Positions 6,849 to 58,317 are shown, numbered from the stretch's first letter. The stretch: 64,000 nucleotides of DNA from Wohlfahrtiimonas populi (GCF_002006795.1 NZ_MVDN01000003.1:113957-177956); one strand, 5' to 3'. Program-made: numbers and translations. Notes: generated by a model not told the origin, from the letters alone.

Positions 6849-6873
6849 CGCATAATACTTTGAGGAGAACACT

Positions 6874-7905: not shown

Positions 7906-9444
7906 ATGACTGTAATTAAAATTGACGGAAATAGCTTAACGCTTGATAACGTTGTAGAAGTTGCTCGTTTAGGTGCAACTGTTGAACTAACCGCTGAATC
8001 CATTAAAAGTATTGATATTTCTCGTCAATACGTTGATGAATTAGTTGAATCTGGTGAAATCGTTTACGGTATCACAACAGGTTTTGGTAACTTCAGTAAT
8101 GTTCACATTTCTAAAGATCAAGCCAAAGATCTACAGCGCAACTTAATCATCAGCCATTCATGTGGCGTGGGCGATTATTTGCCAACAGATGCAGTGCGTG
8201 CAATGATGCTACTTCGCATCAACAACCTAGCTAAAGGCTATTCAGGCATTCGCTTGAGCACAATCGAAACTTTGATGAACATGTTGAATAAAGGCGTTCA
8301 TCCAAAGATTTTTGAAAAAGGCTCATTAGGCGCGAGTGGCGACTTAGTACCGTTAGCACACATGGTTCTACCAATGATCGGCGAAGGTGAAGCAGAATAC
8401 CAAGGTGAAATTTTACCTGGTAAAGAAGCTATGGCAAAAGCTGGCATTCCAATCATTGAATTAACATCGAAAGAAGGTTTAGCATTGATCAATGGCACGC
8501 AAGCAATGACTGCTGTCGGTGCATTGACTTGTTATGATGCGATCAAACTATTGAAAGCAAGTGATATTGCGGTTGCTTTGACAATGGAAGCATTGAATGG
8601 CATCACAGATCCATTCATCCCTGAATTGCATGCACTTCGCCCACATCCAGGACAAGGTGCTTCAGCACAGAACTTATTATCTTTGTTAGCTAATAGTGAA
8701 CGCACAACGCATCAAGGCGATATTCGCGTACAAGATGCTTATGTATTACGTTGCGCACCACAAATTCACGGTGCTAGCCATGATGCGATTGAATATGTAC
8801 GTCGCAAAGTAGACATTGAAATCAACTCAGTAACAGACAACCCAATCATCCTAGTGGATAAAAAAATGGGGATTTCTGGCGGGCATTTCCACGGTCAGCC
8901 AATGGCATTGGCTTTCGATTTCTTAGGCATTGCTTTAGCTGAATTGGCTAACGTGAGTGAGCGCCGCATTGAGCGTTTAGTAAACCCTGCTTTGAATAAC
9001 GGCTTACCTGCATTCTTGACAGAGCAAGGTGGTTTACATTCTGGCTTTATGATCGTGCAATATGCAGCGGCATCTTTAGTTTCTGAAAACAAAGTGCTAG
9101 CACATCCTGCAAGCGTGGATTCTATTCCATCTTCTGCAAACCAAGAAGATCATGTAAGCATGGGCACAATCGCTGCACGCAAAGCGCAAAGCATCTACAA
9201 AAATGCCAAAGCAGTTGTTGGCATGGAATTGATGTTAGCAAGCCAAGCAGTTGATTTAAACAAAAAAGATGCGGGTAAAGCTTTAGGCACAGGCACAAAA
9301 GCTGCGTACGATACTATTCGTTCACAAATCCCAACTTTGACGGAAGATCGCGTAATCTATCCTGACATCCACAAATCAGCAGATTTGTTAGAAACAGATC
9401 TAGTGGACAATGTAGAGAAAGCTCTCGGCTTCTCTTTAAGCTAA
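7906..9444 (+). CDS. hutH: histidine ammonia-lyase
   Basis: 512 aa carrying the MIO-forming ASG triad context (GSLGASGDLVPLAH) and the typical HAL C-terminal region. Confidence 0.9.
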   Translation: MTVIKIDGNSLTLDNVVEVARLGATVELTAESIKSIDISRQYVDELVESGEIVYGITTGFGNFSNVHISKDQAKDLQRNLIISHSCGVGDYLPTDAVRAMMLLRINNLAKGYSGIRLSTIETLMNMLNKGVHPKIFEKGSLGASGDLVPLAHMVLPMIGEGEAEYQGEILPGKEAMAKAGIPIIELTSKEGLALINGTQAMTAVGALTCYDAIKLLKASDIAVALTMEALNGITDPFIPELHALRPHPGQGASAQNLLSLLANSERTTHQGDIRVQDAYVLRCAPQIHGASHDAIEYVRRKVDIEINSVTDNPIILVDKKMGISGGHFHGQPMALAFDFLGIALAELANVSERRIERLVNPALNNGLPAFLTEQGGLHSGFMIVQYAAASLVSENKVLAHPASVDSIPSSANQEDHVSMGTIAARKAQSIYKNAKAVVGMELMLASQAVDLNKKDAGKALGTGTKAAYDTIRSQIPTLTEDRVIYPDIHKSADLLETDLVDNVEKALGFSLS

Positions 9445-18348: not shown

Positions 18349-18937
18349 TCAATATCTTCAAAGCATCTTGCAAACCAATTGTATGATCTGTTGCTGAGAA
18401 TAATTGCACAGTTGCTGGCATTGCAAACTCTTTCAAAGCTTCTTCCACTTTAAATAATGCTGATTTTGCAGGACCACGCTTTAGCTTATCTGCTTTTGTT
18501 AAGAGAATATGAACACGCAAATCCTGTGATTCACACCAGCGAAGCATTTGTTCATCTAAAACAGTCATTGGATGACGAACGTCCATCATCATGATTAAAC
18601 CTGTTAGATTTTTACGTGTTTCAAAGTAACCTTGAATCACTGATTGCCAATGCAAACGAATGCGCTCAGGTACTTTTGCATAACCATAACCCGGTAAATC
18701 CACCAAAAAGTTTTGTGGATCCACTTCGAAATAGTTAATCAATTGTGTACGCCCTGGCGTTTTACTTGTACGAGCCAATGTTGATTGCGAAGTTAACGCA
18801 TTCAAAGCACTGGATTTACCAGCATTAGAACGACCAGCAAAAGCCACTTCATGCCCTTCTGTTTCAGGCAGTTGGTTCAATTGATTCGCGCTCGTTAAAA
18901 ATTTTGTCGCATGAAAGCGTTGAATTAAATTACTCAT
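18326..18937 (-). CDS. yihA: ribosome biogenesis GTP-binding protein YihA/EngB
   Basis: G1 motif GRSNAGKSSALN, G3 DLPGYG and G4 TKADK are present. I chose the start at MSNLIQ (18937) rather than the upstream in-frame M. Confidence 0.8.
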   Translation of the reverse strand: MSNLIQRFHATKFLTSANQLNQLPETEGHEVAFAGRSNAGKSSALNALTSQSTLARTSKTPGRTQLINYFEVDPQNFLVDLPGYGYAKVPERIRLHWQSVIQGYFETRKNLTGLIMMMDVRHPMTVLDEQMLRWCESQDLRVHILLTKADKLKRGPAKSALFKVEEALKEFAMPATVQLFSATDHTIGLQDALKILNEWLPRD

Positions 18938-19325
18938 GTGTCTCTTTTTGAGGTTTTTGACTACATTCCTCTGCCACAATGGCAAGTACAGTCATGTATT
19001 TGTCGTTAACAGTTTGCATAAAATTAATCTCATCTACAGAGAGAGATTCTATTTGATGCGCATAAGCCTTTTCAGCAATTGCAGTGAAACGTTCAGCATT
19101 GGTATCACCCATCATGACAACAATGTTACTTGAAATACAACGGGATTCAAACTCTGTCATCTTCCCTTCTTCAATCTGTTTCGCTTGTGTAGCCATCAAT
19201 CGTGCAATAATACTTTGCTGTGTAAATGAAAAAGGTTGTTGCATCTTTTCTAATGAATTAAACGTTAATTGTGCATTAGAAAATGATAGCGTGATTAAGG
19301 CTAAGAATAAAGTTATTCGTTTCAT
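18930..19325 (-). CDS. hypothetical small secreted protein
   Basis: The signal peptide MKRITLFLALITLSFSNA starts at an internal Met. I did not recognise any conserved family. Confidence 0.35.
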   Translation of the reverse strand: MKRITLFLALITLSFSNAQLTFNSLEKMQQPFSFTQQSIIARLMATQAKQIEEGKMTEFESRCISSNIVVMMGDTNAERFTAIAEKAYAHQIESLSVDEINFMQTVNDKYMTVLAIVAEECSQKPQKETHE

Positions 19326-19569
19326 AGTTAATTGTCTATTCGTTAAATTAATCAATTTCGTGTGAGATAGGAAATATTATCAAAAATTTTTGTCTTTTGG
19401 GATGAGATACCTTTTATGCTATAATCTTTCCTTTTTTGGGAAAATTCCCATACCAATAGCCGTCAGGCATGATAAATGATTTCGAACGAATTTGCTCGTT
19501 TTTGTCGTATATCACTAATTTTTTCGCCCTTGCGATGAGGGCTTCACTTGAACAATCAAGGAACTTTTA

Positions 19570-21689
19570 TGTCGAAAACAATGAGGACGCAAAGCAAGTA
19601 TTTTACAAGCCTAAACATCCCCGTGTTCGTAGGCGCCAATATACTAATATTAGCTCTTTTATGCATTACAATTTTTGTCCCGAATACAAAAGACTTTTTC
19701 AGCGCGATTCAAACGTGGATCGTTGATAACCTTAAATGGTATTACATATTATCCGTCGCCATCATATTAGGCGCAGCTATATTCATTACATTCAGTCGCT
19801 TTGGTGACATTCGATTAGGGCCAGATCATTCCCGCCCAACTTATACAAATTTCAGCTGGTTCGCCATGCTTTTCTCCACAGGAATGGGGATAGGCTTAAT
19901 GTTCTTTGGTGTTGCAGAGCCAGTAATGCACTATATCGCACCGCCAGTAGGTGAACCTGAAACCGTTAAAGCTGCAACAGAAGCGATGCGCTTAACCTTC
20001 TTCCATTGGGGATTACATGCTTGGGCAATCTATGCGATTGTTGGCTTAATCTTAGCGTATTTCTGCTTCCGCCATAAATTACCTTTAGCATTACGTTCTG
20101 CGCTTTATCCATTAATTGGTGAACGCATTTACGGTAAAATTGGTGATGCCATTGATATCTTTGCTGTTATCGGTACAGCATTTGGTGTGGCAACATCTTT
20201 AGGTTTTGGTGTAGAACAAATTTTTGCAGGTTTAGACTATTTAACAAGTTATAAATTATCTGCTTATGCACAAGATCCTAATGCTTTATTGTCTGTCACT
20301 GGCATTAAAATCGTCATCGTGATCATTGCAACAGCAGGTGCAACTTTATCTGTGAGTTTAGGTTTAGATAAAGGGATTAAAATCCTCTCTGAAACCAACC
20401 TATATATGGCATTAGCATTGATGTTATTGGTGCTATTTTTAGGTGGTAAAACTGTGATGTTGTTCCAAGCATACATTCAAAACATTGGTAGCTACTTATC
20501 TGATTTAGTGAACAAAACATTTAACTTATATGCTTACGAGCCAAAAGATCCTCGCGATTGGATCGGTGGTTGGACGATTCTTTATTGGGGCTGGTGGTTA
20601 TCATGGTCGCCATTTGTGGGCATGTTCATCGCTCGTATTTCTCGTGGTCGTACAATCCGCACATTCTTATTGGGCGTATTATTAGTGCCAGCAGGCTTCA
20701 CATTACTGTGGATGACTGTGTTTGGTAACTCAGCGATCGATATGATTCGTAATGATGGCGTGATTGCAATCACTGATGCGATTAATACCGATAAATCATT
20801 AGCGTTATTCGTATTCTTGGAAGGATTCCCTTGGGCTTCCGTATTATCAGGCTTAAGCATCGTGATGGTATTTGTATTCTTCATTACAAGTGCCGATTCT
20901 GGTGCAATCGTAATGGATATGCTCTCTTCCACTAAAACACAAACACCACTATGGCAACGTGTTTATTGGGGATCAATCACAGGCGTGATTGCCATTGTGT
21001 TGATGTCCGCCAATGGTTTGGAAGCACTACAAACTGCGACCATTGCCTCCGCATTCCCATTCAGTATTATTTTATTGATCTCACTGTATGGGTTATTTAA
21101 AGCTTTGCGCGTGGATTATGGTAAAAAAGAAATTCGCATAAATTCCATCAATAATGTACAAACAAGCGCAGCATCTGGCGGTTGGCAGAAACGTTTACGT
21201 AGTTTAGTGCTCTATCCACGCCGTGATCATGTGATTCGCTTTATTGAAGAAGTGGTTCAACCTGCTTTTGAAGAAGTTGCTGCTGAATTATCAAAGCAAG
21301 GCATTCAAACAACCATTACCAAAAAAAGCGATGATGATATTCTCTTTGAAGTGGAACATGGTAAAAATGATAACTTTATGTATCGTATTAAAGCTCGTCA
21401 TTATTTGAAACCTAACTTCTCTTCCATTGAGGCATCGGACATTGATCCTGATTATCAGAAGTATTTCCGTGCGGAAGTGCATTTGGATAATGGTGCGCAA
21501 GGCTATGACATTATGGGCTACAGCAAAGAAAGCCTAAGCAATGACATTGTGGATCAATACACAAATCATTTACAATTCATTCATAACTTCCAATTGGAAC
21601 ATGATGTTAAATCTGTTTTGAAAGAAATTAACAATGGCAATGATACCAATGGAAACAGTGAAACAACAGAAGAACCTAGCAAAGCGTAA
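19570..21689 (+). CDS. betT: BCCT-family transporter (BetT-like choline/betaine transporter) with ~190-aa cytoplasmic C-terminal extension
   Basis: Carries the BCCT signature region (WTILYWGWWLSWSPFVGMFIARISRGRTIR) and 12 TM segments. A long hydrophilic C-terminal tail is typical of osmoregulated BetT/BetP. An AAGGA RBS precedes the ATG at 19570. Confidence 0.8.
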
Positions 21690-21710
21690 TTAGCTCAATA
21701 TTCTTCTAAC

Positions 21711-21750
21711 AAAAAGCCCAAATAGAAAACTATTTGGGCTTTTTTATATT
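21711..21750. terminator. rho-independent terminator (AGCCCAAATA-gaaaac-TATTTGGGCT + T6)
   Basis: Perfect 10-bp stem with a T-run. It lies between the convergent betT-like gene and the lipase gene. Confidence 0.6.
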
Positions 21751-22029
21751 TCAAAATTCATCATAAGTTTTTTCAAACTGTCACATAAAATAGTTCAACT
21801 TCTCTTATCTCATGGAAAATATTATAAATATACCTACTTATTTTATAGCTAATACCACGGAGCATCCCATGAAATTAAAATCATTATTTATGACAGGCAT
21901 TTTATCATCAGCAATGTTTGTATATTCTTAAGATCAAATTTAAAACCCTAAATAACGTTTTATTAAAACTTTTGCACTATAGGATTCATCACAAAACCTT
22001 TATTATAAGCTCTGCAAAGCTGCTTACAA

Positions 22030-23448
22030 CTAGGATATTTCTCTTCCTTGACCCTGCTCTTGGCTTCTACTTTGGGATAGGCTTTGTGTTCTTGCAGTTT
22101 CTTCTAATGCTACTAAATTTTGCTTAGAAAAATCTTCAATCACACCAACTTCTTCAAGTTTTCCTTTATCTCTACAGAAAACCTTTAATCCATCATCCTC
22201 ATTAAATTTTCCTAGCAGGTCATTAGTGCTATTAGCATAATGATCAAAACAACCTACTTTGCAAAAATCCATTGCATATGATTTGCCTGCAATCAACATT
22301 ACAGGATTGCCATTCGCATTATTCTCTATGCTGATATCCGGCCTATTAGCGGATAGATTAATTTGGTTTTCATTATTAGATGATTGACTTTGTTCTAATT
22401 CTTGTTGTTTAGCTTCTTCAAACTGCTTTTTAAAGTTTTCAGTTTCACTGAATAGGTATTGAACACTATCTATCTTATCTTGGTGTTGATCTATTTTATC
22501 TTCAAGGTAATTTTGCCAATCCTCTGGTAGCTTACCTTTGATCTGTTCTCCATTTTCAGAAAAAAATGTGATTAATTCCGTTTCTACTGTTCTTACATTT
22601 TCTAAAACAGATTCTCTATTAATTTGGATATCTCTTCTAAATTCGTTCACTAAAGTTAAATTTTCACCTGTTAGATTTGCAGCAAGTGGATCATTCAATA
22701 TAGATAGGTGCTTATTGTCATTCAGATCATTGACGAAATTACTCATGCTATGAACGCCGCCATAAGTAAAAGCCGCTACACCTAGCCACATTTCATTATT
22801 ATCGACATCTTTATCGCCATACTTTAAGGTTTTTAGTAGGATTAATTCATCTTCGCGCGCATATAAAATTTCTTTACCTATGTGATGGTTAGCAATATTC
22901 ACAACATCATTTGCCATCATGTGATTAGTGATATCACCATGGTATTCTCTAGGGACAGTTTTATATTCACCTTGTAAATTTTGATATTTCAAACCCACAG
23001 AGCCATAACCATTGAAAGTCATGGCTTTTAGCCCATATTCATAAGCACAAACCTCAGCAAGTGCACCACCTAAAGAGTGACCAGTGATGCTGACTTGAGG
23101 GATTGGTACATTGTTATCTTTAGCATAATCTTTAGAATATTGAAGAGCTCTTTCAGTTAATGCTAGAGCATGAGGAATCTGGAGATTAACATCTTGGGTT
23201 GCCATCAAATAATCCACTACCCCATCTTCCATAGAAGCTGTACCACGATGAGCTACAAAAATTTCACCAGTATTAATATCCTGATATATAGTGCCTTGGT
23301 AATCAGTCTTTTCGTCAGAATATTGTTCTATAACTTTAAATTTACCCAATTGAACTTGGTAAGTTTCATCAGTGTCTATATATTTTGGATCGATATCATT
23401 GTAAGCATCATCGGCTAAATTTGCATATTTTTGAGGAAAGTCTGACAT
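22030..23448 (-). CDS. class-3 (fungal-type) lipase-domain protein without signal peptide; candidate secreted phospholipase/lipase effector
   Basis: 472 aa with the GHSLGGALAE nucleophile elbow inside a lipase_3-like N-terminal half. There is no Sec or Tat signal. The C-terminal ~200 aa are low-complexity (S/Q/N/E-rich). Confidence 0.65.
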   Translation of the reverse strand: MSDFPQKYANLADDAYNDIDPKYIDTDETYQVQLGKFKVIEQYSDEKTDYQGTIYQDINTGEIFVAHRGTASMEDGVVDYLMATQDVNLQIPHALALTERALQYSKDYAKDNNVPIPQVSITGHSLGGALAEVCAYEYGLKAMTFNGYGSVGLKYQNLQGEYKTVPREYHGDITNHMMANDVVNIANHHIGKEILYAREDELILLKTLKYGDKDVDNNEMWLGVAAFTYGGVHSMSNFVNDLNDNKHLSILNDPLAANLTGENLTLVNEFRRDIQINRESVLENVRTVETELITFFSENGEQIKGKLPEDWQNYLEDKIDQHQDKIDSVQYLFSETENFKKQFEEAKQQELEQSQSSNNENQINLSANRPDISIENNANGNPVMLIAGKSYAMDFCKVGCFDHYANSTNDLLGKFNEDDGLKVFCRDKGKLEEVGVIEDFSKQNLVALEETARTQSLSQSRSQEQGQGREIS

Positions 23449-24065
23449 CTCTAAATCTCCTCTAACTCAATATGAAATGTGAAATATTCTTCAGGCTGAA
23501 AAGCATCCTTTTTTATGCCACTACTTAAATAATTAGATAAATTTTTATTTTCTGGATATCTCTCTTTTAAATGACTTTTTTCAAAATATTTTTTATCTAA
23601 ATCACTGTCTGAAATGGAAGCACTGAATCGGGTTTCTTCTTTTGCGCCTGTGGCTTTAAAAACGATTGAAGCATTGTTAAACCCCCAATGGCAAACACCC
23701 CCACCATAGCCATAATCCTCATCCAACATACCATCTACATAAAATTCCCCTTGATACTCAGTATCTGATATTTTCTGAAATTCAAGTGGAATTCTGTGTC
23801 GTGGCTGTAAAGAAGCCCCAGCAAAGCCCTTGAGTTGGTACTGACAATTAGTCGTTTGATAAATAGCATACGTATTTAAACTTTCGAGTTTTCCTGGTGC
23901 ATTTTCAATTTTGATGGTGACTCGATACCCTTTTTGAGGATTGGGGTTTTCCTGAAAACGTTTTTCTTCTTCTTTTTGGGTTGAAGTATATCTTTGATTG
24001 TTATTCATAAATCCTTTTCCATAGCTCACGCTGATTAAAAATACAATTGGCAAAATCCATAGTTT
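23421..24065. repeat. tandem direct repeat copy A (~645 bp) spanning the lipase start and paralog-1 gene
   Basis: This segment re-occurs at +765 bp (24186..24830). Identity is high at both ends and diverged in the middle. Confidence 0.7.
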
Positions 24066-24074
24066 GGTCCACAT
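23451..24074 (-). CDS. secreted protein, paralog 1 (putative lipase immunity protein)
   Basis: 207 aa with the signal peptide MWTKLWILPIVFLISVSYG. Its stop is 2 bp from the lipase start. It is a paralog of ORF 24216..24842 (N-terminal ~75 aa nearly identical, then ~60-70% identity). Confidence 0.4.
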   Translation of the reverse strand: MWTKLWILPIVFLISVSYGKGFMNNNQRYTSTQKEEEKRFQENPNPQKGYRVTIKIENAPGKLESLNTYAIYQTTNCQYQLKGFAGASLQPRHRIPLEFQKISDTEYQGEFYVDGMLDEDYGYGGGVCHWGFNNASIVFKATGAKEETRFSASISDSDLDKKYFEKSHLKERYPENKNLSNYLSSGIKKDAFQPEEYFTFHIELEEI

Positions 24075-24150
24075 ATTGATTATCCTTTTGGGTAACTGCT
24101 TAAGTTATTTTATTTCTAAATACTTTTTCTTAATTCAATGATTGATTCAA

Positions 24151-24213
24151 TTAAGAAAAAATATTATGAATATTGTTTGCTAAGTTAGTATATTTTTGAG
24201 GAAAGTCTGACAT
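24151..24213 (-). pseudogene. orphan 5' fragment of a second lipase copy (MSDFPQKYTNLANNIHNIFS*), remnant of effector gene duplication
   Basis: The reverse strand reads ATGTCAGACTTTCCTCAAAAATAT..., nearly identical to the first 8 codons of the intact lipase (MSDFPQKY). It then diverges and terminates after 20 codons. Confidence 0.55.
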
Positions 24214-24830
24214 CTCTAAATCTCCTCTAATTCAATATAAAATGTGAAATATTCTTCAGGTTTAAATCTTTCTTTTTTAAGCCCTCCTTGGCTTAAGTAT
24301 CTTGGGAGTTTTTCATCTATAGGGTAATTCTCTTTCAAATGGTTAAACTCAAGTTGTTTTTTATTCAGATCGCTATCTGAAATAGATGCGCTAAATCTTG
24401 TATCATCTACATTTTCTGTTGCGGAAAATACAATTGAAACATTGTTAAAACCCCAATGGCAAATACCTCCGCCATAGCCATAATCTTCATCCAACATACC
24501 ATCTACATAAAATTCCCCTTGGTACTCAGTGTCTGATATTTTTTTAAATTCAAGTGGAATTCTATGATAGGGTTGTAAAGAAGCCCCAGCAAAACCTTTG
24601 AGTTGGTACTGACAATTTCGTGTTTGATAGTTAGCATAGGTGTACAGCTTCTCAAATTCACCCGGTGCATTTTCAATTTTGATGGTAACTCGGTACCCTT
24701 TTTGGGGATTGGGGTTTTCCTGAAAACGCTTTTCTTCTTCTTTTTGGGTTGAAGTATATCTTTGATTGTTATTCATAAATCCTTTTCCATAGCTCACGCT
24801 GATTAAAAATGCAATTGGCAAAATCCATAG
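24186..24830. repeat. tandem direct repeat copy B (~645 bp) spanning the orphan lipase 5' fragment and paralog-2 gene
   Basis: Same as copy A. For example, TATTTTTGAGGAAAGTCTGACATCTCTAAATCTCCTCTAA is shared at both locations. Confidence 0.7.
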
Positions 24831-24842
24831 TTTTGGCTTCAT
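24216..24842 (-). CDS. secreted protein, paralog 2 (putative lipase immunity protein)
   Basis: Signal peptide MKPKLWILPIAFLISVSYG (start taken at an internal Met). It is paralogous to 23451..24074, including the conserved Cys/Trp block GYGGG(V/I)CHWGFNN. Confidence 0.4.
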   Translation of the reverse strand: MKPKLWILPIAFLISVSYGKGFMNNNQRYTSTQKEEEKRFQENPNPQKGYRVTIKIENAPGEFEKLYTYANYQTRNCQYQLKGFAGASLQPYHRIPLEFKKISDTEYQGEFYVDGMLDEDYGYGGGICHWGFNNVSIVFSATENVDDTRFSASISDSDLNKKQLEFNHLKENYPIDEKLPRYLSQGGLKKERFKPEEYFTFYIELEEI

Positions 24843-24918
24843 TTTCCATCCTTTATGTATAACTTTGTAAAAAATCATATTTATAAATATGATTTTTTAC
24901 TATTTCTATAATCGATAC

Positions 24919-25440
24919 TTACAATTCATTGATAGCTTTGAATCTTTCAACCCTTTGCTTCTCAAGGGATTCGAACCATTCTGTAGATGGCTTTTTATAA
25001 ATTCGTTCAGAAAATACATAATACGTAAGATGTCCATTTTTTACCATAAAACGATACATTGCATATTCTGTAATATTTCCACTCGTTATTAATTTTTCTA
25101 AATAGTATTCATTCTTTTTTTCATCTTTAGTCGCGGCTATTGTTGTTGACAATATAGGTTCCTTAGTATTTTGAGCTAGGTAGCTTAGATACCCATCCAT
25201 TTTATCCACAGTGATCGTTTTTTGTTCCCAGTATGAAACCATGCTTTTGAAACTATTTAAGTCCTCTCCTTTGGGTAAAAACTCCACGACATTTACTTTT
25301 GCATCACTATTTTCATATGCTTGAGAATATTCAACACCTGCAAAATCAATCTTGTCAATTGTCTTATTCTCAGCAACTGAGATGTATACTAATTCTAAAA
25401 AAATTAAAAATATCAATACTATTTTTTTTATATCTTTCAT
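24919..25440 (-). CDS. hypothetical secreted protein (signal peptide; unrelated to the paralog pair)
   Basis: MKDIKKIVLIFLIFLELVYISVA is a signal peptide. The gene lies 36 bp downstream of the giant ATPase gene on the same strand. Confidence 0.35.
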   Translation of the reverse strand: MKDIKKIVLIFLIFLELVYISVAENKTIDKIDFAGVEYSQAYENSDAKVNVVEFLPKGEDLNSFKSMVSYWEQKTITVDKMDGYLSYLAQNTKEPILSTTIAATKDEKKNEYYLEKLITSGNITEYAMYRFMVKNGHLTYYVFSERIYKKPSTEWFESLEKQRVERFKAINEL

Positions 25441-25524
25441 GTTTATTATTTCCATAAAATTTAAAAACTGAGTGGATAAGATGACCACTCAGCAGGGTTA
25501 ACTTAATTTGTACCCGAGCACAAT

Positions 25525-28500
25525 TTACTCAGTCACAATTCTATTTTCTTTAATCAATCGTATTTCTCGGCGGCCGCCCAAAGCTTCAACGCCTTTCACA
25601 AGTGCATCTAAGCGATGAACAATATACTGTGGATTATTCATCTGCATTGTATCTTTCAAGCTATTCACGCCTTTAACCAATTCACCCATTTGTTTCGCCA
25701 CATAACGATTCACATTTTGCAAATCATCGCTTTCTTTAAATTCATCGAGCTTTTCACTCAATTTCGCGATTTGTGCCGCAATATGTAATGAAGCCTGAGC
25801 ATTGGTCTTGCTATTGTTACTGGAAACTAAAACGCCTGATAATTTAGTCACTTCATCTGCAATTTTCAAACTCGCATTCGTTGCATCTTGCTGATCGCCC
25901 ATTAATCGAAGGCTTTCAGTTAATGACACTAAGTGATTCGCAAAATTCAGATCTTTCACGCTCATCGCCAATTCTGCTAATTGAGATACGATCTTCATAC
26001 CTGTATCAGTTTCATCGCCACCCATGGATTTATTACGAGCAAAATCTCGTTTGATTTGTGCCCAGCGCTCTTTTTCTACATCTGTTAATGTGCCACGAAT
26101 TTCATTGAGTTTTAATAAATTCTCTTCAGCACCCGATGTTAATAGCTGAGCTTCACCAATGTAGTGATCATTAATTACTTGGTTAATTTCTGCCTCATTC
26201 ATTACTGCAGAAATTTTCTCCACCATTTTATTCATATTACGGTAGCTGCCTTGCAACTTAAATGGCGGTTCTGTGCGATATTTATCAGATTGTGCTGCAC
26301 TCACAATGTATTGCTGATTCACCTTGAAAACGATTTCGCGAATGATCATCAAATGCTTCAATACAGTTGTGATTTCTGCAATCTCCGCACCACTATAATC
26401 ATAACTCAATGCACTTGAATTAATCGGCTTGCCTTCTGCATGATCCATGAATTGATATAAATCTTTCAAATCACGAAGTGCCAAAGGTGACAATACTGCG
26501 TTCGATGTTAATGAGTTTTCGATATAACTTGAGATGAACGCATCCTGCATCCCACCCAAAACTTCACCTAAGTTATAAATATCCGCACGGTTTGCCAACA
26601 TATCAGGAATTTTAAAGACTTCACCCGATTCTGTATAAGGATTCCCTGCCATCACAACGCAGAATTTCTTCCCACGCATGTCATAAGTTTTTGTTTTGCC
26701 ATTCCAAACACCTTCAATTCTTCGTGTACCATCACACAATGAAATGAACTTTTGTAGGAATTCAGGATTTGTATGTTGAATATCATCAATATACAACATC
26801 ACATTGTTGCCCATTTCAAAAGCTAAGTTAGCTTTTTCTAGCTCCTGCCTTGCTGTAGCATTCGGTGCTTGATCAGGATCTAATGATAAAACATCATGCC
26901 CCAAAGCTGGACCATTCACTTTCATGAAAATTAAGCCCAAGCGATTCGCCACATATTCCATCAATGTGGTTTTACCATAACCTGGCGGAGAAATGAGGAG
27001 CAATAAACCCATTAAGTCTGTACGGCGATTTTCGCCCACTGTACCCATTTGCTTCGCTAAGTTATCACCAATGATTGTGAAATAAACATCATTGATCAAT
27101 TTATTGCGCACGAATGAGCTAAGCGGCTTTGCCTTAAATTCATCTAAACGTAATTTCTCACGCTGCTCTGCCAAAATTCCTTGACGAAGCTCTAAATATT
27201 TTCTAAATTCAGGCACAACATATAAACGATGGCGGCGTAATCGCTTAAAAAACTCATCCAAGTTAATCATCATTTTACCTTGAGAAACTCTAGAATGTTC
27301 GCCCAATAAATCTGTGATCTCAATGTCTAATTCAACTTCACTGAAACGCTGAACTACTTTACCTTCATTACCCAACATCAATAACATAATCGCCTCAGGA
27401 ATGTAACGAACCTTATTCTCAAATTCAGGTAATGAGCATAAGCCTTTCAACCAATTCTCAATCAACTGCCAACGTGCATCAAATCGCCCATTCATACCTA
27501 ACTGTGAATGGTTAAAGTTGTGCCACATATGTGCATCTTCAAGTTTCTTTTGCAATCCCGACGCTAGCTCTCGGCCATAACGGCTACAGAAGAATTCTTG
27601 TGGCGTTCTTGCTAGAACATAAATCAAGTATTCTGCTGCATGCTTAATGTTCAATGGTTCGTGCTTGATTGGATATTCCGCATAGAACATTGATAATGTT
27701 ACTTCAATCTCTTCTTGAAGATCATCTAAGCCATCTTTATGCCCAAACAAAGTATAAATATCCATACTCGTTTTAGCGCGATCAATCCAAGAGCTTGCCA
27801 CATCATCCTCTTGCTCAAAGTTCCAATACAACATGGCTAAGCTTCTCGCCATTGCGCTGAATCTTAATAGATCAGCACTTTCATGCAATGGGACAAGCTG
27901 CTTTAAGATCTGTACTGCATCGTGATCATGAATCCCTTTTTCATAACCATCACGATAGCGACTTGCTGCAAAATCACGCACCAATTTATCTAAATTTTCT
28001 TGAATGGAAATCGCTGCATGCAAAATGCCTGTGGTTAAGCCATCTTGATTATTTCTAGCCGCCACAATGATGCTATTGGCAAGATATTCACCACGATAAA
28101 CTTCTGACGATTCTGATTCCATCGTCATGTTCCAGAATGGCTGATATTGCGCTAGGATTTCGTTATTGATGCGCTCTTGATAATCTGTGCCCGTTAATTG
28201 TAAATAGAGATAATTTTCTTTCGGTAAAATCGTCAAATCAGGTTCTTGTGTATTTACGCTGAAGCGATGTTTACCCAAGCGAATAACATTGCCGCCTGAT
28301 TCAAAAATCTCTGATTTATCTCGGAGTGATCTGACTGCTTGATCTTTTGCACTTTTGAAGCGCGATTCAATGTCATCCGCTTTAACATTATCATGCAATT
28401 CACGGAGTTTTTCTGTGATGTCACGAATTTTCACAGCTAAAGCATCTGTTACGAAAAACGCATTCAATTCGGTTGCATCATTGAGCCGTGCCGTTCTTCT

Positions 28501-30879
28501 TGGAATGCTTTCTAAAATGCGATCTGCTGCAGTTTGTAAAGATTGTGCCCTACGCTGGCGTTCTTCTAATAGTTGTTGCTTATGTCCTTCGAAACTCTCT
28601 AAAACTTCATCACGCTTTGCAATAATGTCAGCTAAAAACTCATCACTTTCGCTGAATTGATTTTCAAGCTCTTCCAATTGCACCAATAAACGTGATAATT
28701 CATCATCGCAACGCTCTGGTGCCACTGCTAAATTTAAAGCATTGGCAACACTTTGGCTAAAAAGCTTAAATTGTGCACCAAATTGCGCCACCATTTCTGT
28801 GGAAGATAAAGACTTACGCTTTTGAATGATGCGCGCCTTCATCTGGTTTAATTTAGCATAAACCTCAGCAATGGATTCAACGATCTTAGTTTGCAATGTC
28901 ACATCATCAAACTTCAATGTCGCCATCAAATTGGACAACATATCTAAATCACCCGACATATCATCAGATTCTGTCAGTAATGTTTGTAATTGTGCTGTGT
29001 TGATTGCTTGTTGCGTTGCAGTTTCTGTCGTTTGAATTTTGTCTAAAAATGGTTGCAATGAGCGATCATCTGCCAAAAATTCCGCAGTTGCGCGAGAAAT
29101 TTGTGCTTGGCGCTCTTTCATTTGTGTTTCCATTGCATCAATCTCTTTCAGATCAATGTAACGATAACCACGCAATGTGACTAAGCGGCCAATTTGCATA
29201 TTGATGGAATGTAGCGCTTCTACAAATTCATCAGTTTCCTGCCAGCTATCTGCATACAATTGCGATAACAATGTTTTTTGCATTGTCATCGCCTCACGCA
29301 TTGCAGCATCAGATTGACGACGAATGGCTTCTACTTTCTCATATTCATCTAAAACCAATTCGCTGGTTTGAGAAATCGAACGCAAAATACCTGCAAATGG
29401 GAAATTCTTTTCATCATTGAGCCAGAAATAGCGATCAAATAACTGTTTCGTTGTTTCACTCAATAAGCTATAACGATCTGATGAAACACTCTGATCACCA
29501 ATTTCACGCACAACATGATATAAATCGGAAATTCCGCGCACTAAATCAGGATTACCAATTCGACCTAATAAACTATTATTATTGGGTTGTTTTGCTGAAT
29601 ATTCATCACTGAAAAATGGTGTTTGCCAAATCTGCATAGGATGAACGCGTGTTGCTTCATGATCTGCGGTTTCAAAAACAACCATTCTGCCATCTTCAAA
29701 CACAGCATAACCGAGCGCTAAAATAGGATTCCCTAGCGTTCGTTCAATCATATTATAGTTGAATAATGCTAAACGCCCTTCTGCACCATCATAGAAAATG
29801 TATAAAACATCTTCACCATTCGGCGATCTACGAATACGGCGAAAACGCATGCCACTCATATTATGCTCATACGTTTTAAAATCGCCACTTTGAAGATAAT
29901 AACCACCAGGGAAAATAATCCCGTGATCTTCTGGCAATTGAATACATGCAAAGCCAATCGCATCAATGCGTTGAACTTTTTGCGTCATTGTATTGTAAAC
30001 GAGATAGCGCCAAGTATCTTCGCGATATGGCAATACTTTTAGTAAGATCAATGATCCGACTTTTGCATACTCTATTTTGGCATCATTGATGGATTGATTT
30101 TTATCTAGAACTTCTTCACGATAAATTCCTAAGCCATCATTCGTATTATTTTCACATTTAACCGTTAAATCCCCGCCAATTGTTTCCACAAAAACGGTAT
30201 CTAAAATATTAATGTGAGGAAAACGCCCATTGACGATATTTTCACGATCTGTCGTTATCCATTCAAAATCATAAGCTGGCGGCAATGAAATATCACGCTC
30301 ACCACGATTATCAATGTATTCGATTTTCTGTTTATCACTAGAAATTGACCAACGGAAAACACGAATATCGCTTAATCGCTCACCCATTTGGAAGCTTGCC
30401 AACAGCTTGCCATCACGCTCAACTAATTGTAATAGCTGTGCATTTTTATAATAAGTGTAAAGCTCATTAAAATCTTGAACGAAACGATCTATGTTTAAAA
30501 ATGTACCTTCTAACGGCACAGTTTCAACATCATAACTACCATCATGCTCAACTAAACGGTAGAGAGAGAAAACATCTTCAACGTGCGTTTCTTTCTTTAA
30601 ACCTAAGAAAACGTTATAACCAAACAGTAACCAATCACCAAAGCGCACAATATCGCGTGCAATACAGTTGTTTTCGGTACGAATACGGATTCGCCCAATC
30701 ACTTCCATATCACTTTTGCCAAACTCTTCTAAACGCTTGGAATTCAGCCCATCAATATTCTCTTGAAGTTCTGTTCCCAATGCATTTAGTCGACGGCTTA
30801 ATATTTCATAAGCGCCACCTTCTGCAACTGCGCTGTCTAACACTTCTTGGTTTTGATCTTTCTGTTCGATTTCTGACAT
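25525..30879 (-). CDS. giant (~1784-aa) coiled-coil protein with C-terminal MoxR/AAA_5-type AAA+ ATPase domain; flotillin-associated; function unknown
   Basis: Walker A LLLISPPGYGKTTL sits at ~aa 1300-1313 (nt ~26980). Walker B is VMLYIDDIQH, sensor-1 is VVMAGNPYTE (ATMNP-like) and an arginine finger lies in DMLANRADIY (LLDRF-like). Long predicted coiled coils flank the ATPase. There is no signal peptide or TM segment. I prefer the ATG start at 30879, since the ORF-track start at 30903 is TTG. Confidence 0.6.
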   Translation of the reverse strand: MSEIEQKDQNQEVLDSAVAEGGAYEILSRRLNALGTELQENIDGLNSKRLEEFGKSDMEVIGRIRIRTENNCIARDIVRFGDWLLFGYNVFLGLKKETHVEDVFSLYRLVEHDGSYDVETVPLEGTFLNIDRFVQDFNELYTYYKNAQLLQLVERDGKLLASFQMGERLSDIRVFRWSISSDKQKIEYIDNRGERDISLPPAYDFEWITTDRENIVNGRFPHINILDTVFVETIGGDLTVKCENNTNDGLGIYREEVLDKNQSINDAKIEYAKVGSLILLKVLPYREDTWRYLVYNTMTQKVQRIDAIGFACIQLPEDHGIIFPGGYYLQSGDFKTYEHNMSGMRFRRIRRSPNGEDVLYIFYDGAEGRLALFNYNMIERTLGNPILALGYAVFEDGRMVVFETADHEATRVHPMQIWQTPFFSDEYSAKQPNNNSLLGRIGNPDLVRGISDLYHVVREIGDQSVSSDRYSLLSETTKQLFDRYFWLNDEKNFPFAGILRSISQTSELVLDEYEKVEAIRRQSDAAMREAMTMQKTLLSQLYADSWQETDEFVEALHSINMQIGRLVTLRGYRYIDLKEIDAMETQMKERQAQISRATAEFLADDRSLQPFLDKIQTTETATQQAINTAQLQTLLTESDDMSGDLDMLSNLMATLKFDDVTLQTKIVESIAEVYAKLNQMKARIIQKRKSLSSTEMVAQFGAQFKLFSQSVANALNLAVAPERCDDELSRLLVQLEELENQFSESDEFLADIIAKRDEVLESFEGHKQQLLEERQRRAQSLQTAADRILESIPRRTARLNDATELNAFFVTDALAVKIRDITEKLRELHDNVKADDIESRFKSAKDQAVRSLRDKSEIFESGGNVIRLGKHRFSVNTQEPDLTILPKENYLYLQLTGTDYQERINNEILAQYQPFWNMTMESESSEVYRGEYLANSIIVAARNNQDGLTTGILHAAISIQENLDKLVRDFAASRYRDGYEKGIHDHDAVQILKQLVPLHESADLLRFSAMARSLAMLYWNFEQEDDVASSWIDRAKTSMDIYTLFGHKDGLDDLQEEIEVTLSMFYAEYPIKHEPLNIKHAAEYLIYVLARTPQEFFCSRYGRELASGLQKKLEDAHMWHNFNHSQLGMNGRFDARWQLIENWLKGLCSLPEFENKVRYIPEAIMLLMLGNEGKVVQRFSEVELDIEITDLLGEHSRVSQGKMMINLDEFFKRLRRHRLYVVPEFRKYLELRQGILAEQREKLRLDEFKAKPLSSFVRNKLINDVYFTIIGDNLAKQMGTVGENRRTDLMGLLLLISPPGYGKTTLMEYVANRLGLIFMKVNGPALGHDVLSLDPDQAPNATARQELEKANLAFEMGNNVMLYIDDIQHTNPEFLQKFISLCDGTRRIEGVWNGKTKTYDMRGKKFCVVMAGNPYTESGEVFKIPDMLANRADIYNLGEVLGGMQDAFISSYIENSLTSNAVLSPLALRDLKDLYQFMDHAEGKPINSSALSYDYSGAEIAEITTVLKHLMIIREIVFKVNQQYIVSAAQSDKYRTEPPFKLQGSYRNMNKMVEKISAVMNEAEINQVINDHYIGEAQLLTSGAEENLLKLNEIRGTLTDVEKERWAQIKRDFARNKSMGGDETDTGMKIVSQLAELAMSVKDLNFANHLVSLTESLRLMGDQQDATNASLKIADEVTKLSGVLVSSNNSKTNAQASLHIAAQIAKLSEKLDEFKESDDLQNVNRYVAKQMGELVKGVNSLKDTMQMNNPQYIVHRLDALVKGVEALGGRREIRLIKENRIVTE

Positions 30880-30967
30880 ATTCACAACTTTATTTAAAAT
30901 CAATCAACTAAACATAGCGAGCTAATCTCGCTATGTTCTGTTTATTTTCAAAGAAATGCATCAATGA

Positions 30968-33034
30968 TTATGGTTCAGCCTGATCATCATTGCGTTCTTT
31001 GTTGCCTTGATAACCTAAAAACTGCGTTGCCAATGCATTCAAATCAACATTGCTTAAAGGATTACTTTGCGTTGCATTAGTGCCACCATTTTGTGCTGGT
31101 GCTTGAATACGGCTCAATACAGTTTGCAGTGCTGTTTGTAAAATTGGGCTTTGGTTCACAGAGCCTTCAATTGCTTTACCTACGCTAATTGCTTTAGAGA
31201 AGCTTTCGAAGAACTTGTCATTGCCGCCCACAATTTCCATCTTCGCATTACTCAATGCAGCGCCTAACACATCTGCTTGTTCGCGAGCGATTTCTTGATT
31301 TGCACTGATAGAAGCCATTGCTTGTTCGAAGCCTTTTTCCAATGCTAAACGGAACTCTTCGTGCGCACGTGAATCTTCCGTCATTGTGCCCATAGCATGG
31401 AATTTCTCCACCAAACCTTCTGCTTCTGCACGAAGTTTCTCACGAATAATAGATGCTTCCACCAAGCCTTGTTTTTCAACGGCTGTTGCTTTAGCTTCTA
31501 CAACTTTAGCTTCTGCTAAACCTTTATCTTGAATCGCTTTAGCTTCTGCTGAGCCTTTCTCTTGAATACCTTTAGCTTCTGCAATGCGCATTTCACCTGC
31601 AACAAAGGCTTGAACCATACCTTCTTTCTCTTCAGCTTCTGCTTTCGCTAACATGACACGCGCTTCTGCTAAACCGATTGCAGCTTGCTCTGCTTCTGTA
31701 CCTTCCGCCATACGTTTTTGAGCTTCAGCATCTTTCGTTGCTGCTTCCAAGTTCGCTTGGGCAATCGTGCTGATTTCAACTGCACGATGTTTTGCAGCTG
31801 TTTCATCCGCTTCTGCTTGCTTCACTTGCTTCACTAACTCTTCTTCAGCTTTGGCTTGTGCTGCCAAGATTTTCGTTTGTTTCTCACGTTCCGCAGCAGA
31901 TATTTCACGAACTTCTTTAATGCGCTCTTCTTCAATCGCCACTGTTTTTTCAACAGAAATACGTTCACGAATCACATCAGCAATGATGCGTTTTTCTTCT
32001 TCAACTGCTTTATCTTTTTCAATCGTTTGCAATTCGATTTCGCGTTCACGTGCAACCACTTCCAATTCACGCGCACGAGTAACACGTTCTTCTTCGATTG
32101 CAACTGCACGCATACGATTTTGCTGTGCAACTTCAACTTCACGCTGGCGATTTTCTTCACGCACTTCAATTTCTTGCTGTGAAATGATGCGAGCTTGTTC
32201 TGCTTTTAAGCGCTCTTCTTCTTGAACTTTTAATGTTTCTGCTAATTCACGTGCACGAATCGTTTCAATTTCACGTTTTTGGCGTGCTTCAGCATCTGCT
32301 TGTTGGCGTTCTAATTCTAATTTAGCTTCAAATGTTTCAGTATCTTTCTTTTTCAAAGCCAATTCTAAATCACGTTCACGTTTGTTTGTTTCATCTTTAT
32401 GAACGGCTGTGATTGCTGTGATTTTATTGATACCTTCCGCATCGAAGATATTGTTTGGATCTAAGTGACCAATTGGCGTTTGCTCCAAATAGTCAATTGC
32501 AACGTCTTCCAATGCATAACCATTTAAGTCTTTACCGATTACATCCACAATGCGCTCACGGAAGTTTAGACGATCTTCAAACAGTTTTGCTAAATCAAAT
32601 TGCTTACCAACAGTTTTCAATGCTTCAGAGAATTTTGCACTGAATAATTCACTCACAGCATGGTGATCCGATGCACGATCTACACCAATAGATTTTGCAA
32701 CTTTCAATACATCTTCTGTGGTTTCATTCACACGAATATAGAATGCAACAGCAATATCAGCACGCAAGTTATCTTTACAGATCAAACCTTCTTTACCACG
32801 GCGATCCACCAATAATGTCAATAAAGAGATCTTCATGAACTCTTTCTTATGAATGACTGGTAATACCAATTTACCTGTAAAGAATACTTTTGGTTTGCTC
32901 GTCGTATCATTCAGAATCAAAGCTGTGCCTTGCGGAACTTTCACATAGAATGCTTTGATGATTGCAAATAGACCAAAGATAACAACCAGTGAAACACCGA
33001 TCACCGACAATACTAAAACAACAATTTCTGGCAT
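30968..33034 (-). CDS. flotillin-family SPFH/band-7 protein (YqiK-like) with extended E/A/R-rich coiled-coil region
   Basis: 688 aa with an N-terminal TM helix followed by an SPFH domain. A ~300-aa charged coiled coil (EEERLKAEQAR...) and a C-terminal flotillin tail follow. Confidence 0.8.
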   Translation of the reverse strand: MPEIVVLVLSVIGVSLVVIFGLFAIIKAFYVKVPQGTALILNDTTSKPKVFFTGKLVLPVIHKKEFMKISLLTLLVDRRGKEGLICKDNLRADIAVAFYIRVNETTEDVLKVAKSIGVDRASDHHAVSELFSAKFSEALKTVGKQFDLAKLFEDRLNFRERIVDVIGKDLNGYALEDVAIDYLEQTPIGHLDPNNIFDAEGINKITAITAVHKDETNKRERDLELALKKKDTETFEAKLELERQQADAEARQKREIETIRARELAETLKVQEEERLKAEQARIISQQEIEVREENRQREVEVAQQNRMRAVAIEEERVTRARELEVVAREREIELQTIEKDKAVEEEKRIIADVIRERISVEKTVAIEEERIKEVREISAAEREKQTKILAAQAKAEEELVKQVKQAEADETAAKHRAVEISTIAQANLEAATKDAEAQKRMAEGTEAEQAAIGLAEARVMLAKAEAEEKEGMVQAFVAGEMRIAEAKGIQEKGSAEAKAIQDKGLAEAKVVEAKATAVEKQGLVEASIIREKLRAEAEGLVEKFHAMGTMTEDSRAHEEFRLALEKGFEQAMASISANQEIAREQADVLGAALSNAKMEIVGGNDKFFESFSKAISVGKAIEGSVNQSPILQTALQTVLSRIQAPAQNGGTNATQSNPLSNVDLNALATQFLGYQGNKERNDDQAEP

Positions 33035-33119: not shown

Positions 33120-33755
33120 CTAAAAATATTTCTTTTTGGGAATCACTTCATAATGATGATTGGCAGAATGATATTTAATAATAATCGCTTCACTACCGCG
33201 CGTTAATTGATTATTTTCATTGAGACAACGCACTTGTAGAATCATACCTGCACCACCATCCTCATAAGTCGCTTCACCTTTTTCAGCATTCACAATGCTA
33301 CTGCGAACAATGACAACTTCGCCTAAGATATCTTTATGTGTCACTGCTTTATTTAATTTGGATAACCATTTGTTAAATGGTCGAAAAAATATGGATGTTG
33401 CAACTAAACCAACAACACCGCTCGCCAATACATTGGCTAAACCTACGCCATAATATAAAAGTGCAACATCTTTCATTGGCATCTGTAACATGCGGAAAAT
33501 GAGATAGCTTGCGAGCCATGCAAATAAAGCAACAAATGTGGCAACCACAGTGAAAGGAATTTCATGTAATTTAAATTTTAATAATATGCCACCCAAAGCA
33601 TTGAGCGAACCAACATCACCTTCTGGTGAAATATCTAAGCTATCCAATTGAAAAATATCAATGGCGCCAATCAGCCAGAAAATAATGCACAACAATAATA
33701 AAGTTGTATAGATCACAACTGGAAATGCAAAAATTGTCTCTAAAAATAGCATCAT
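33120..33755 (-). CDS. NfeD/YqiJ-like inner-membrane protein (partner of flotillin)
   Basis: 211 aa with 3-4 N-terminal TM helices and a C-terminal soluble beta-rich (OB-like) segment (GEVVIVRSSIVNAEKGEATYEDGGAGMILQVR). It lies directly upstream of the flotillin gene, as in E. coli yqiJ-yqiK. Confidence 0.5.
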   Translation of the reverse strand: MMLFLETIFAFPVVIYTTLLLLCIIFWLIGAIDIFQLDSLDISPEGDVGSLNALGGILLKFKLHEIPFTVVATFVALFAWLASYLIFRMLQMPMKDVALLYYGVGLANVLASGVVGLVATSIFFRPFNKWLSKLNKAVTHKDILGEVVIVRSSIVNAEKGEATYEDGGAGMILQVRCLNENNQLTRGSEAIIIKYHSANHHYEVIPKKKYF

Positions 33756-57945: not shown

Positions 57946-58317
57946 CTACATATTGCTTAATATATCTTCGATGTCATAACATTCAGGATGCCTTTGAATC
58001 ACTGCAATCAGCTCATATATACTTGAAAAAACAGGCGATAAATCCATTTCATCATGATTCAACAAAGCCACTTGATATTGGTGCTTCCCAGCATGATAAA
58101 CACAAATATAATTTGAATTATTATCCATCATAATGGGTAAAAGCTCAGAAAAATCATCAGGATATTCAGAGAAAAATGACATCATACTTTCAAACTCTTC
58201 TTGTTCTAATATCACGAAACCATCTCGACTGATAAAATTACCCAAGGCATCCACATCTCTACTTGGAAATTGATAGGTATTTAATAGATTTGTTATAAAA
58301 CTCATAGCATTTTGCAC
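57946..58317 (-). CDS. small acidic protein, possibly SMI1/KNR4 (SUKH)-like
   Basis: 123 aa. The pattern (LPSRDVDALGNFISRDG ... YHAGKHQYQVALLNHDE) resembles SUKH immunity-type proteins. The call is weak. Confidence 0.25.
   Translation of the reverse strand: MQNAMSFITNLLNTYQFPSRDVDALGNFISRDGFVILEQEEFESMMSFFSEYPDDFSELLPIMMDNNSNYICVYHAGKHQYQVALLNHDEMDLSPVFSSIYELIAVIQRHPECYDIEDILSNM

Follow-up and report, generated by a model that had tools for sequence, protein, structure and literature searches.

Organization of the cassette

In a 64,000-nucleotide stretch of Wohlfahrtiimonas populi DNA (GCF_002006795.1, NZ_MVDN01000003.1:113957-177956; hereafter the window, with coordinates counted from its first nucleotide) we analyzed a cassette formed by the gene of a signal-less lipase, a putative effector, and two duplicated genes of its putative immunity proteins, all on the minus strand. 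The lipase open reading frame (ORF), called at 22030-23448, encodes 472 amino acids (aa). It comprises a catalytic domain of the class-3-lipase-like alpha/beta-hydrolase type (residues 1-285; 22594-23448), a C-terminal module (residues 346-472; 22033-22413) occupying the slot that is held by the XVIPCD domain in homologous lipases, and a linker between the two (residues 286-345; 22414-22593). The adjoining immunity gene A (23451-24074, 207 aa) is presumed to be the cognate one, and immunity gene B (24216-24842, 208 aa), situated further upstream, has no lipase of its own.

The lipase had been described in the initial annotation, made from the sequence, as overlapping the upstream gene by 2 bp. 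The junction instead reads TAG-AG-ATG, the stop codon of gene A and the lipase ATG being separated by a 2-bp spacer (23449-23450), and the Shine-Dalgarno sequence of the lipase, GAGGAG, read directly, lies within the 3' end of gene A (23457-23462). To judge from the sequence, the spacer and the internal Shine-Dalgarno site would be compatible with translational coupling of immunity A and the lipase. Junctions of the same type recur in the sister-strain locus (L009) and after gene B, 3' of which we found an element missed by the initial annotation, a 63-nt relic ORF of the lipase 5' end (24151-24213; MSDFPQKYTNLANNIHNIFS up to the stop codon).

Paralog A has a 100% identical counterpart among the NCBI proteins of W. 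populi. The ORF of paralog B extends to 24878, where an upstream in-frame ATG would yield 220 aa, although the ATG at 24842 is likely the true start; another W. populi NCBI protein (P0123; 208 aa, 82% identical to A) matches paralog B in length and identity. The genes form a direct repeat of 765-768 nt with 85-89% DNA identity, and the proteins are 82% identical, a similarity far beyond chance. Hence, two duplicated paralogs with signal-like N-termini, as initially annotated, are indeed present.

The lipase and its relatives

The description of the lipase as a signal-less protein with a GHSLGG motif also holds: the N-terminus is hydrophilic (MSDFPQKYANLADDAY...) and the motif occupies residues 123-128. 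The residues S125, D181 and H233 are invariant in the alignment of 28 family members, and by their order and conservation we assign them as the catalytic triad of a Ser-Asp-His alpha/beta-hydrolase. The match to the Lipase_3 family (PF01764) is borderline, at 21.8 bits with the cutoff of 22, and a 93% identical relative (P0001) scores 23.2 bits. The other Pfam matches, Mbeg1-like and DUF676, are both below the cutoff, no further hydrolase family being matched; NCBIfam yields a weak match to SA1320_fam only, and PADLOC yields none. The homologues carry the PF26363 domain ("Phospholipase-like"), with or without PF01764 and PF20410, and the lipase belongs to this family.

The X-type, bacteria-killing type IV secretion system (T4SS; X-T4SS) exports effectors (X-Tfes), which bind the coupling protein VirD4 via the C-terminal domain XVIPCD (PF20410). 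Export needs both this domain and a Gln-rich tail with an Arg/hydrophobic end, and several X-Tfes are predicted phospholipases, each with an upstream gene of an immunity protein (X-Tfi) (PMC6536674, PMC6759196, PMC8740702). In the large protein search, X-Tfe-type lipases are 32-49% identical to the W. populi lipase over 51-83% of the query. The closest relatives are unnamed proteins from sequencing runs and three paralogs from Neisseria sp. (42-49% identity), followed by more than 100 proteins of Xanthomonas, Stenotrophomonas, Lysobacter and Pseudoxanthomonas named "XVIPCD domain-containing protein" or "lipase". For XVIPCD-bearing lipases of Xanthomonas, Stenotrophomonas and Lysobacter the E-values are in the range from 1e-33 to 1e-43, with 32-40% identity over about 60% of the query. 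Thus, the toxin domain is homologous to that of recognized X-Tfes. The BLASTP alignments to three relatives (P0002-P0004) span 72-79% of the query, which suggests that they reach into the linker, and the alignment with one of these (P0003, the lipase of locus L003) extends to query residue 373; the linker itself has no Pfam match.

The immunity proteins

The N-termini of paralogs A and B consist of a basic n-region and a hydrophobic stretch (M[WK][TP]KLWILPI[VA]FLISVSYG, followed by KGF), which by eye looks like a signal peptide cleaved by signal peptidase I. For the 207-aa paralog, 59 relatives were retrieved, every one of them a hypothetical protein by annotation, from the taxa with lipase homologues as well as from Hydrogenophaga. 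Most homologues from Xanthomonadales and Burkholderiales have an L-x-[AS]-C lipobox. The family alignment contains 12 invariant columns, including A-P-G of the ENAPG motif and C and W of CHW, and the D-x-M-L-D-E-D-Y motif is invariant or nearly invariant. With its signal peptide and two invariant cysteines, the immunity protein is, according to the predicted fold, a secreted beta-sandwich.

Five to seven residues past the lipobox Cys or the end of the signal peptide, 33 of 39 family members have a Met. The linker around this position is variable, and six database entries are annotated as starting at this Met. In the window, the internal Met (Met23 of A, ATG at 24006-24008; the equivalent codon of B at 24774-24776) is preceded by GGAAAAGGA. 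The conserved internal Met might plausibly be a second start producing a cytoplasmic isoform, which suggests a dual-location, periplasmic and cytoplasmic, immunity protein. Alternative ATGs have been noted in X-Tfi genes, and activity on either face of the inner membrane was expected of lipase effectors (Sgro et al. 2019, PMC6536674). In Enterobacter cloacae, which has an unrelated effector of the type VI secretion system (T6SS), activation of Tle requires a cytosolic pool of Tli translated from internal start codons (bioRxiv 10.1101/2023.03.28.534661), a parallel to the conserved internal Met of the W. populi family.

Conservation of gene order

Scanning one genome per GTDB species, we obtained 78 loci with an immunity homologue. 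In 73 of these, the next gene, which begins directly behind it, encodes a lipase homologue. Of the five exceptions, four have the match at or very near the end of the retrieved DNA, and the fifth is an orphan immunity gene in a metagenome-assembled genome (MAG) of W. larvae. Homologues of both proteins were found in Xanthomonas, Stenotrophomonas, Lysobacter, Hydrogenophaga and Neisseria; the immunity family occurs almost only directly ahead of X-Tfe-type lipases, and the XVIPCD profile matches 67 of the 76 lipase ORFs. In X. arboricola, the immunity homologue overlaps the start of a lipase with PF26363 and XVIPCD, whereas a gap of 2 bp separates the two genes in Neisseria sp. Tandem immunity genes, two or three in number, are present in 24 of the 78 loci, so that duplication of the immunity gene is a habit of the whole family. 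Given the homology, the conserved gene order and the frequency of XVIPCD, the cassette belongs, as far as can be read from sequence, to the X-T4SS lipase effector/immunity family, although its own lipase lacks the defining XVIPCD.

The initial annotation had proposed an effector/immunity cassette, with duplicated immunity arrays being typical of such loci, and had assigned it to the Tle/Tli pairs of T6SS or to other polymorphic toxins. The gene order and the tandem copies strongly support the former proposal, as does the elevated dN/dS described below. As for the assignment, the broader wording, a polymorphic toxin, stands, and the Tle/Tli part finds no support in family, fold or linkage. Under the T6SS reading, the lipase would travel as a cargo on VgrG, Hcp or PAAR proteins whose genes are located elsewhere, with the paralogs acting as Tli in the periplasm. 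A GxSxG lipase without a signal peptide does adjoin a periplasmic partner here, duplicated immunity genes are common at T6SS loci too, and the lipase bears a weak local similarity, limited to 36-48 residues around the nucleophile elbow, to the E. cloacae T6SS lipase effector 7UBZ_B (E = 0.81 when searched as a single sequence, 1.4e-4 with the family profile). On the other hand, the Pfam matches of the lipase are limited to those listed above; Pfam, with the families that we take to stand for Tle1-5, NCBIfam and PADLOC do not place it in any Tle family, Tle2 (TseL) not having been compared directly by sequence. The fold of the immunity protein matches no solved Tli structure, and XVIPCD, found on most of the homologous lipases, is specific for T4SS. 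No vgrG, hcp, PAAR, DUF4123 or DUF1795 gene neighbours the inspected loci (L001-L004, L009, L012 and L013), and no vgrG, hcp, PAAR or adaptor gene was found among the scanned ORFs of the window, the Pfam scans having taken in 49 of the 56 ORFs of at least 120 aa (the others are six short ORFs nested opposite larger genes and 57946-58317, 123 aa). Hence, we consider a T6SS pair to be improbable.

The conserved pairing bears also on the possibility of an ordinary secreted lipase with a helper, that is, either a Lif-type foldase pair or a lipase of a type I secretion system (T1SS). T1SS lipases have no N-terminal signal and carry a C-terminal secretion signal, which would fit the lack of a signal peptide here. 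However, the Pfam scan revealed no RTX/GGxGxD repeats, and there are no genes of an ABC transporter, membrane fusion protein (MFP) or TolC nearby. A Lif-dependent lipase would have a Sec signal, absent here, and the partner is a predicted beta-sandwich tied to X-Tfe-type lipases rather than a helical Lif; the fast, patchy divergence of the pair is also unlike that of housekeeping genes. Both versions were rejected, their probability being minimal.

The nearest related loci by host come from the W. larvae MAG (L012) and from a MAG of an uncultured member of Cardiobacteriales (L013). In the former (7986-9094), an immunity homologue with a lipobox is followed not by a lipase but by an unrelated 155-aa lipoprotein, with the contig ending 485 nt further; it looks like an orphan, perhaps within a cluster of immunity genes. 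In the latter (5979-7480), the lipase ends at 306-308 aa, short of any C-terminal module, and its immunity partner lacks a signal peptide, the second conserved Cys having been lost as well; this pair may be a purely cytoplasmic or decaying version. The locus L001 (CP152375.1, "Neisseria sp. Ec49-e6-T10") has 37.8% G+C, which is low for Neisseria, and its genome encodes three paralogous lipases (P0005-P0007), whose C-termini are marginally XVIPCD-like (hhalign E = 0.003-0.006). One more record, "Nocardiopsis yanglingensis strain A18" (L039), contains a complete Stenotrophomonas-type pair, with two immunity copies and a lipase; as the assembly bears the name of an actinomycete, it is probably contaminated or wrongly labelled.

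The C-terminal module

The C-terminal module is predicted to form eight beta strands and a long helix, followed by a Gln/Ser-rich tail ending in GQGREIS. The XVIPCD profile PF20410 does not match the W. populi lipase at E up to 10 (the control, P0032, yields 2.5e-24), the hhalign probability for the module against XVIPCD is 0.3%, a purpose-built XVIPCD hidden Markov model run with filters off (--max) assigns the lipase -6.1 bits, and the PDB profile search with the module did not recover the XVIPCD structure 7MU9. Hence, neither the sequence nor the profiles nor the predicted fold reveal an XVIPCD in the lipase, the comparison of folds being weaker than it appears because the model was built from an alignment of two sequences.

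In its general plan, the module resembles both XVIPCD (PDB 7MU9) and the BID domain of Bartonella: each is a folded C-terminal domain of about 100 residues followed by a flexible, positively charged tail, and each is common to toxins with different warheads. The XVIPCD fold is, however, alpha-alpha-beta-beta-beta, and BID is a four-helix bundle (PMC8740702), and the predicted fold of the module matches neither. In the tail of the lipase (TQSLSQSRSQEQGQGREIS), Q, S and T account for 12 of the final 25 residues, and the last four positions are Arg (-4), Glu (-3), Ile (-2) and Ser (-1).

A HMMER search over 1.84 billion representative proteins retrieved the module in only two clusters, the lipase's own and that of P0180, a 1119-aa protein with three PG_binding_1 domains, whose last approximately 130 residues are 51-58% identical to the module. 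P0180 ends in GREA. Its gene is preceded by a tightly coupled gene with a product that is Cys-rich by eye, and it comes from the same sequencing run (SRR29749766) as the sister-strain locus L009. Two further candidate carriers, P0181 and P0182, proved spurious, as they are internally repetitive and their scores are summed over many short stretches.

Since two different envelope toxins share the module, as is the case with XVIPCD, we infer by analogy that it may have a role in export or targeting. That it is a previously unrecognized secretion-targeting domain, substituted for XVIPCD in two or more different antibacterial toxins (the phospholipase and the peptidoglycan-binding protein), is a possibility that we entertain with reserve. 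Alternatively, the shared module could be explained by a diffusible, bacteriocin-like toxin, in which the beta domain would serve for receptor binding or translocation and which would be released by lysis or in vesicles. The lipase and the peptidoglycan-binding toxin each have their own upstream immunity-like gene, no secretion genes are found nearby, and the compact beta domain is unlike any known T4SS signal, all of which would suit such a toxin. At the same time, there is no lysis gene, the Gln/Ser-rich tail with an Arg near its end resembles the tails of T4SS substrates, and the module is situated exactly in the XVIPCD slot of the homologues. Furthermore, in bacteriocins of the colicin and pyocin type the order is opposite, the uptake domain being N-terminal and the toxin C-terminal. 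We regard this explanation as very unlikely.

Another non-XVIPCD C-terminus recurs on the lipase family, also in Lysobacter. By eye, it reads LL.A...G....FR.L......G... and then passes to a Gln-rich tail ending in GPRMA or GREI. It is carried by P0003 (which, with its otherwise different C-terminus, ends in GREI), P0004, P0008, P0009, P0012-P0016, P0022, P0044, P0105, P0115 and P0118, and was seen at the loci L014, L018, L027 and L029.

Divergence from the sister strain and history of the locus

The sister strain (L009-L011) has the same neighbouring genes and a single immunity gene. The flanking proteins are 98.6% (BetT), 98.3% (DUF3686) and 98.3% (HI_0983) identical to those of L009, whereas the identity is 93.5% for the lipase and 82-84% for the immunity proteins. 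The ratio of nonsynonymous to synonymous substitution rates (dN/dS, Nei-Gojobori) in the same comparison is 0.02-0.03 in the flanking genes but reaches 0.12 in the lipase and 0.15-0.23 in the immunity genes, so that in the cassette it is 5-10 times that of the flanks. The lipase and its upstream partner evolve rapidly and in step with each other.

The divergence of the lipase gene is not uniform. In codons 1-135, dS to both sister alleles is 0.90 and dN is 0.08-0.10, while in codons 136-472 dS is 0.10-0.24; the two sister alleles, compared with each other, diverge uniformly (dS 0.28-0.37). Thus, the lipase gene is a mosaic. Codons 286-472, the module included, are the most conserved part of the gene among the three strains, and residues 1-135 probably constitute the hypervariable, immunity-specifying part. 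In the immunity genes, the differences are concentrated in the stretches of residues 46-90 and 121-207.

Paralog B is 84% identical to the single immunity protein of L009, its dS to that gene (0.39) is within the range of the flanking genes, and it keeps the ancestral upstream intergenic sequence, matching that in L009. Behind paralog B, homology to a lipase gene covers its first approximately 38 nt, past which the sequence is unrelated, so that the remainder of the 63-nt relic is non-homologous. Other loci have comparable remnants: at L003 the order is immunity gene, 104-aa lipase fragment, immunity gene, full-length lipase, and at L001 a frameshifted extra immunity copy lies upstream of the pair. 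As the simplest account of the mosaic, the relic and paralog B, these data suggest replacement of a module. An incoming segment comprising immunity gene A and lipase codons 1-135 would have recombined into the resident lipase gene, replacing its front and leaving behind the resident immunity gene (B) with a stub of the old lipase start; paralog B might still protect the cell from sister strains carrying the old lipase allele.

Orphan immunity genes and displaced toxin modules are known from the T6SS auxiliary clusters of Vibrio cholerae and from the loci of contact-dependent inhibition (CDI) and Rhs. As in those loci, the old immunity gene and a toxin stub are retained here beside the new module, and the junction falls on a boundary between conserved and variable parts. 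In CDI and Rhs, however, the variable part is C-terminal and the orphans are situated downstream. In the W. populi lipase, it is the N-terminal third of the toxin that varies, so that the stub derives from the 5' end of the gene and the orphan is located upstream.

The same data allow one to weigh the possibility that the cassette is a stranded or domesticated relative of X-Tfe/X-Tfi pairs with no cognate machine, in which case the lipase would not be exported and the locus would be kept as an addiction-like module or for the sake of immunity. The absence of XVIPCD and of secretion genes among the scanned ORFs of the window would fit this, as would the 306-aa lipase without the module and the immunity protein without a signal peptide in the Cardiobacteriales MAG, and the immunity homologue without an adjoining lipase in the W. 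larvae MAG; protection against cis-intoxication has been stressed by Oka et al. (2024). Against this possibility, the catalytic triad is intact, the lipase evolves under purifying selection, as seen from its dN/dS, and the C-terminal module, being conserved among the strains and retained with 58% identity on a second, unrelated toxin, seems to be under selection for some function. Moreover, the replacement of the allele with retention of the old immunity gene would imply ongoing antagonism. Hence, a stranded cassette is unlikely.

Neighbouring genes

The initial annotation had delimited the cassette as 22030-25488, which covers the lipase and the two paralogs but also a third, unrelated gene at 24919-25488. 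The latter encodes a small secreted protein of the HI_0983 family (PF27161; the ORF has 189 aa, and the NCBI start yields 173 aa), identical to a W. populi protein, with a single close relative cluster in a collection of 5.8 billion proteins. As a third paralog or immunity gene it was ruled out, given no similarity to the other cassette proteins; since it belongs to the HI_0983 family and is equally present in the sister strain with one immunity gene, it is a conserved neighbour outside the cassette.

Upstream of the cassette lies the gene of a 1792-aa DUF3686/AAA protein (25525-30903), with matches to DUF3686 ("ATPase involved in DNA repair", E = 1.5e-198), DUF7902 and an AAA domain. It was rejected as a cassette member: it has no PADLOC match and is 98% conserved in the sister strain whatever the state of the cassette. 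It is preceded by genes encoding a 688-aa (30968-33034) and a 211-aa (33120-33755) protein without matches in Pfam, NCBIfam or PADLOC, all these genes being on the minus strand. The order of the 688-aa, DUF3686 and HI_0983 genes is kept in the sister strain, the two compared proteins being 98% identical.

On the other side, between the convergent lipase and betT genes, is a terminator-like hairpin (21711-21744; a 15-bp stem followed by a T-run), the sole such site within 21600-25700. It was called on the plus strand only, but as the stem is preceded by an A-run, we read it as serving both directions. The promoter scan was uninformative, with 17 sites found against 19.6 expected.

The scanned ORFs of the window encode histidine-utilization (hut) proteins, transporters, pantothenate proteins, HslUV and other metabolic functions; none of them is a secretion-system gene, in agreement with the initial annotation, which had listed vgrG, PAAR and Hcp among the absent ones. 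One ORF, 18930-19355 (141 aa), was scanned with NCBIfam only and had no match.

Proposed function and delivery

Taken by its homologues, the cassette probably serves interbacterial antagonism of the X-Tfe/X-Tfi lipase type. The lipase, made in the cytoplasm, would be exported into neighbouring Gram-negative cells, its C-terminal approximately 125 residues directing the export, and would hydrolyze membrane phospholipids of the rivals. The upstream partner would be the immunity protein, probably neutralizing the lipase in the periplasm, and a form initiated at the internal Met may be cytoplasmic, protecting the producer or acting as a chaperone of the toxin.

Examples of pairs of the same type are the predicted phospholipase effectors of X. 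citri, XAC0574/XAC0573 and XAC2885/XAC2884, and an S. maltophilia "lipase / XVIPCD domain-containing protein". The W. populi cassette shares with the X-Tfe/X-Tfi pairs the homologous catalytic domain (PF26363 with Lipase_3), the homologous upstream immunity protein, the identical gene order with the stop and start codons overlapping or nearly touching, the frequent tandem immunity copies, and the lack of a signal peptide in the toxin. The Gln/Ser-rich C-terminal tail with an Arg near the end resembles those of X-Tfes, apart from the Glu at position -3. It differs in having an unrelated beta-rich module in place of XVIPCD, an immunity signal peptide without the lipobox Cys, and Wohlfahrtiimonas as its host. 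With the T6SS pairs Tle1-5/Tli, as in E. cloacae (PDB 7UBZ), it has in common a GxSxG lipase made in the cytoplasm and an immunity protein in the envelope; the similarity to the E. cloacae pair is nevertheless confined to the nucleophile elbow, the immunity folds are unrelated, linkage to T6SS is absent, and the relatives of the W. populi lipase carry a T4SS signal.

Because the warhead, the immunity protein and the operon are homologous to those of X-Tfe/X-Tfi pairs, and the module is situated in the XVIPCD slot, a divergent X-type T4SS is our best guess for the machine; delivery by such a bacteria-killing system seems the likeliest route, although we favour it only tentatively. Several observations weigh against this interpretation. 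The C-terminal domain of the lipase is not XVIPCD, and its model, with a pLDDT of 73, comes from a two-sequence alignment. According to the rule for X-Tfe tails, the last approximately six residues contain an Arg and hydrophobic or small residues but no acidic ones (Oka et al., PMC8740702), whereas the last six residues of the lipase, QGREIS, include a Glu. Paralogs A and B, reading ...FLISVSYGKGF, have no Cys and hence no lipobox typical of X-Tfis. No T4SS gene is present among the scanned ORFs of the 64-kb window, the literature searched describes no X-T4SS in Wohlfahrtiimonas, and the 2019 X-T4SS survey, as searched, does not mention the genus. Finally, the literature search found no measured activity, toxicity or binding for any member of the lipase family.

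An effector-immunity pair is in itself ordinary; this one is noteworthy for the domain that stands in place of XVIPCD, for its unusual host lineage and for a history of module replacement that can be read clearly. The locus is a clean natural example of the replacement of a toxin allele with retention of the old immunity gene, and it maps the likely region of immunity specificity to lipase residues 1-135 and immunity residues 46-207. The immunity family would also provide a second, independent test of the dual-location idea, which was put forward for X-Tfis and demonstrated for an unrelated Tli of T6SS.

If the module is indeed an export signal, warheads and their immunity genes would move between lineages with the address tag being swapped to suit each local machine, and the module could then be used to find the other effectors, and the secretion system, of this fly- and wound-associated genus. 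If this reading of the module is true, Wohlfahrtiimonas and its relatives would possess an undescribed pathway of contact-dependent killing, using either an X-T4SS with a coupling protein that reads a different signal, or another machine.

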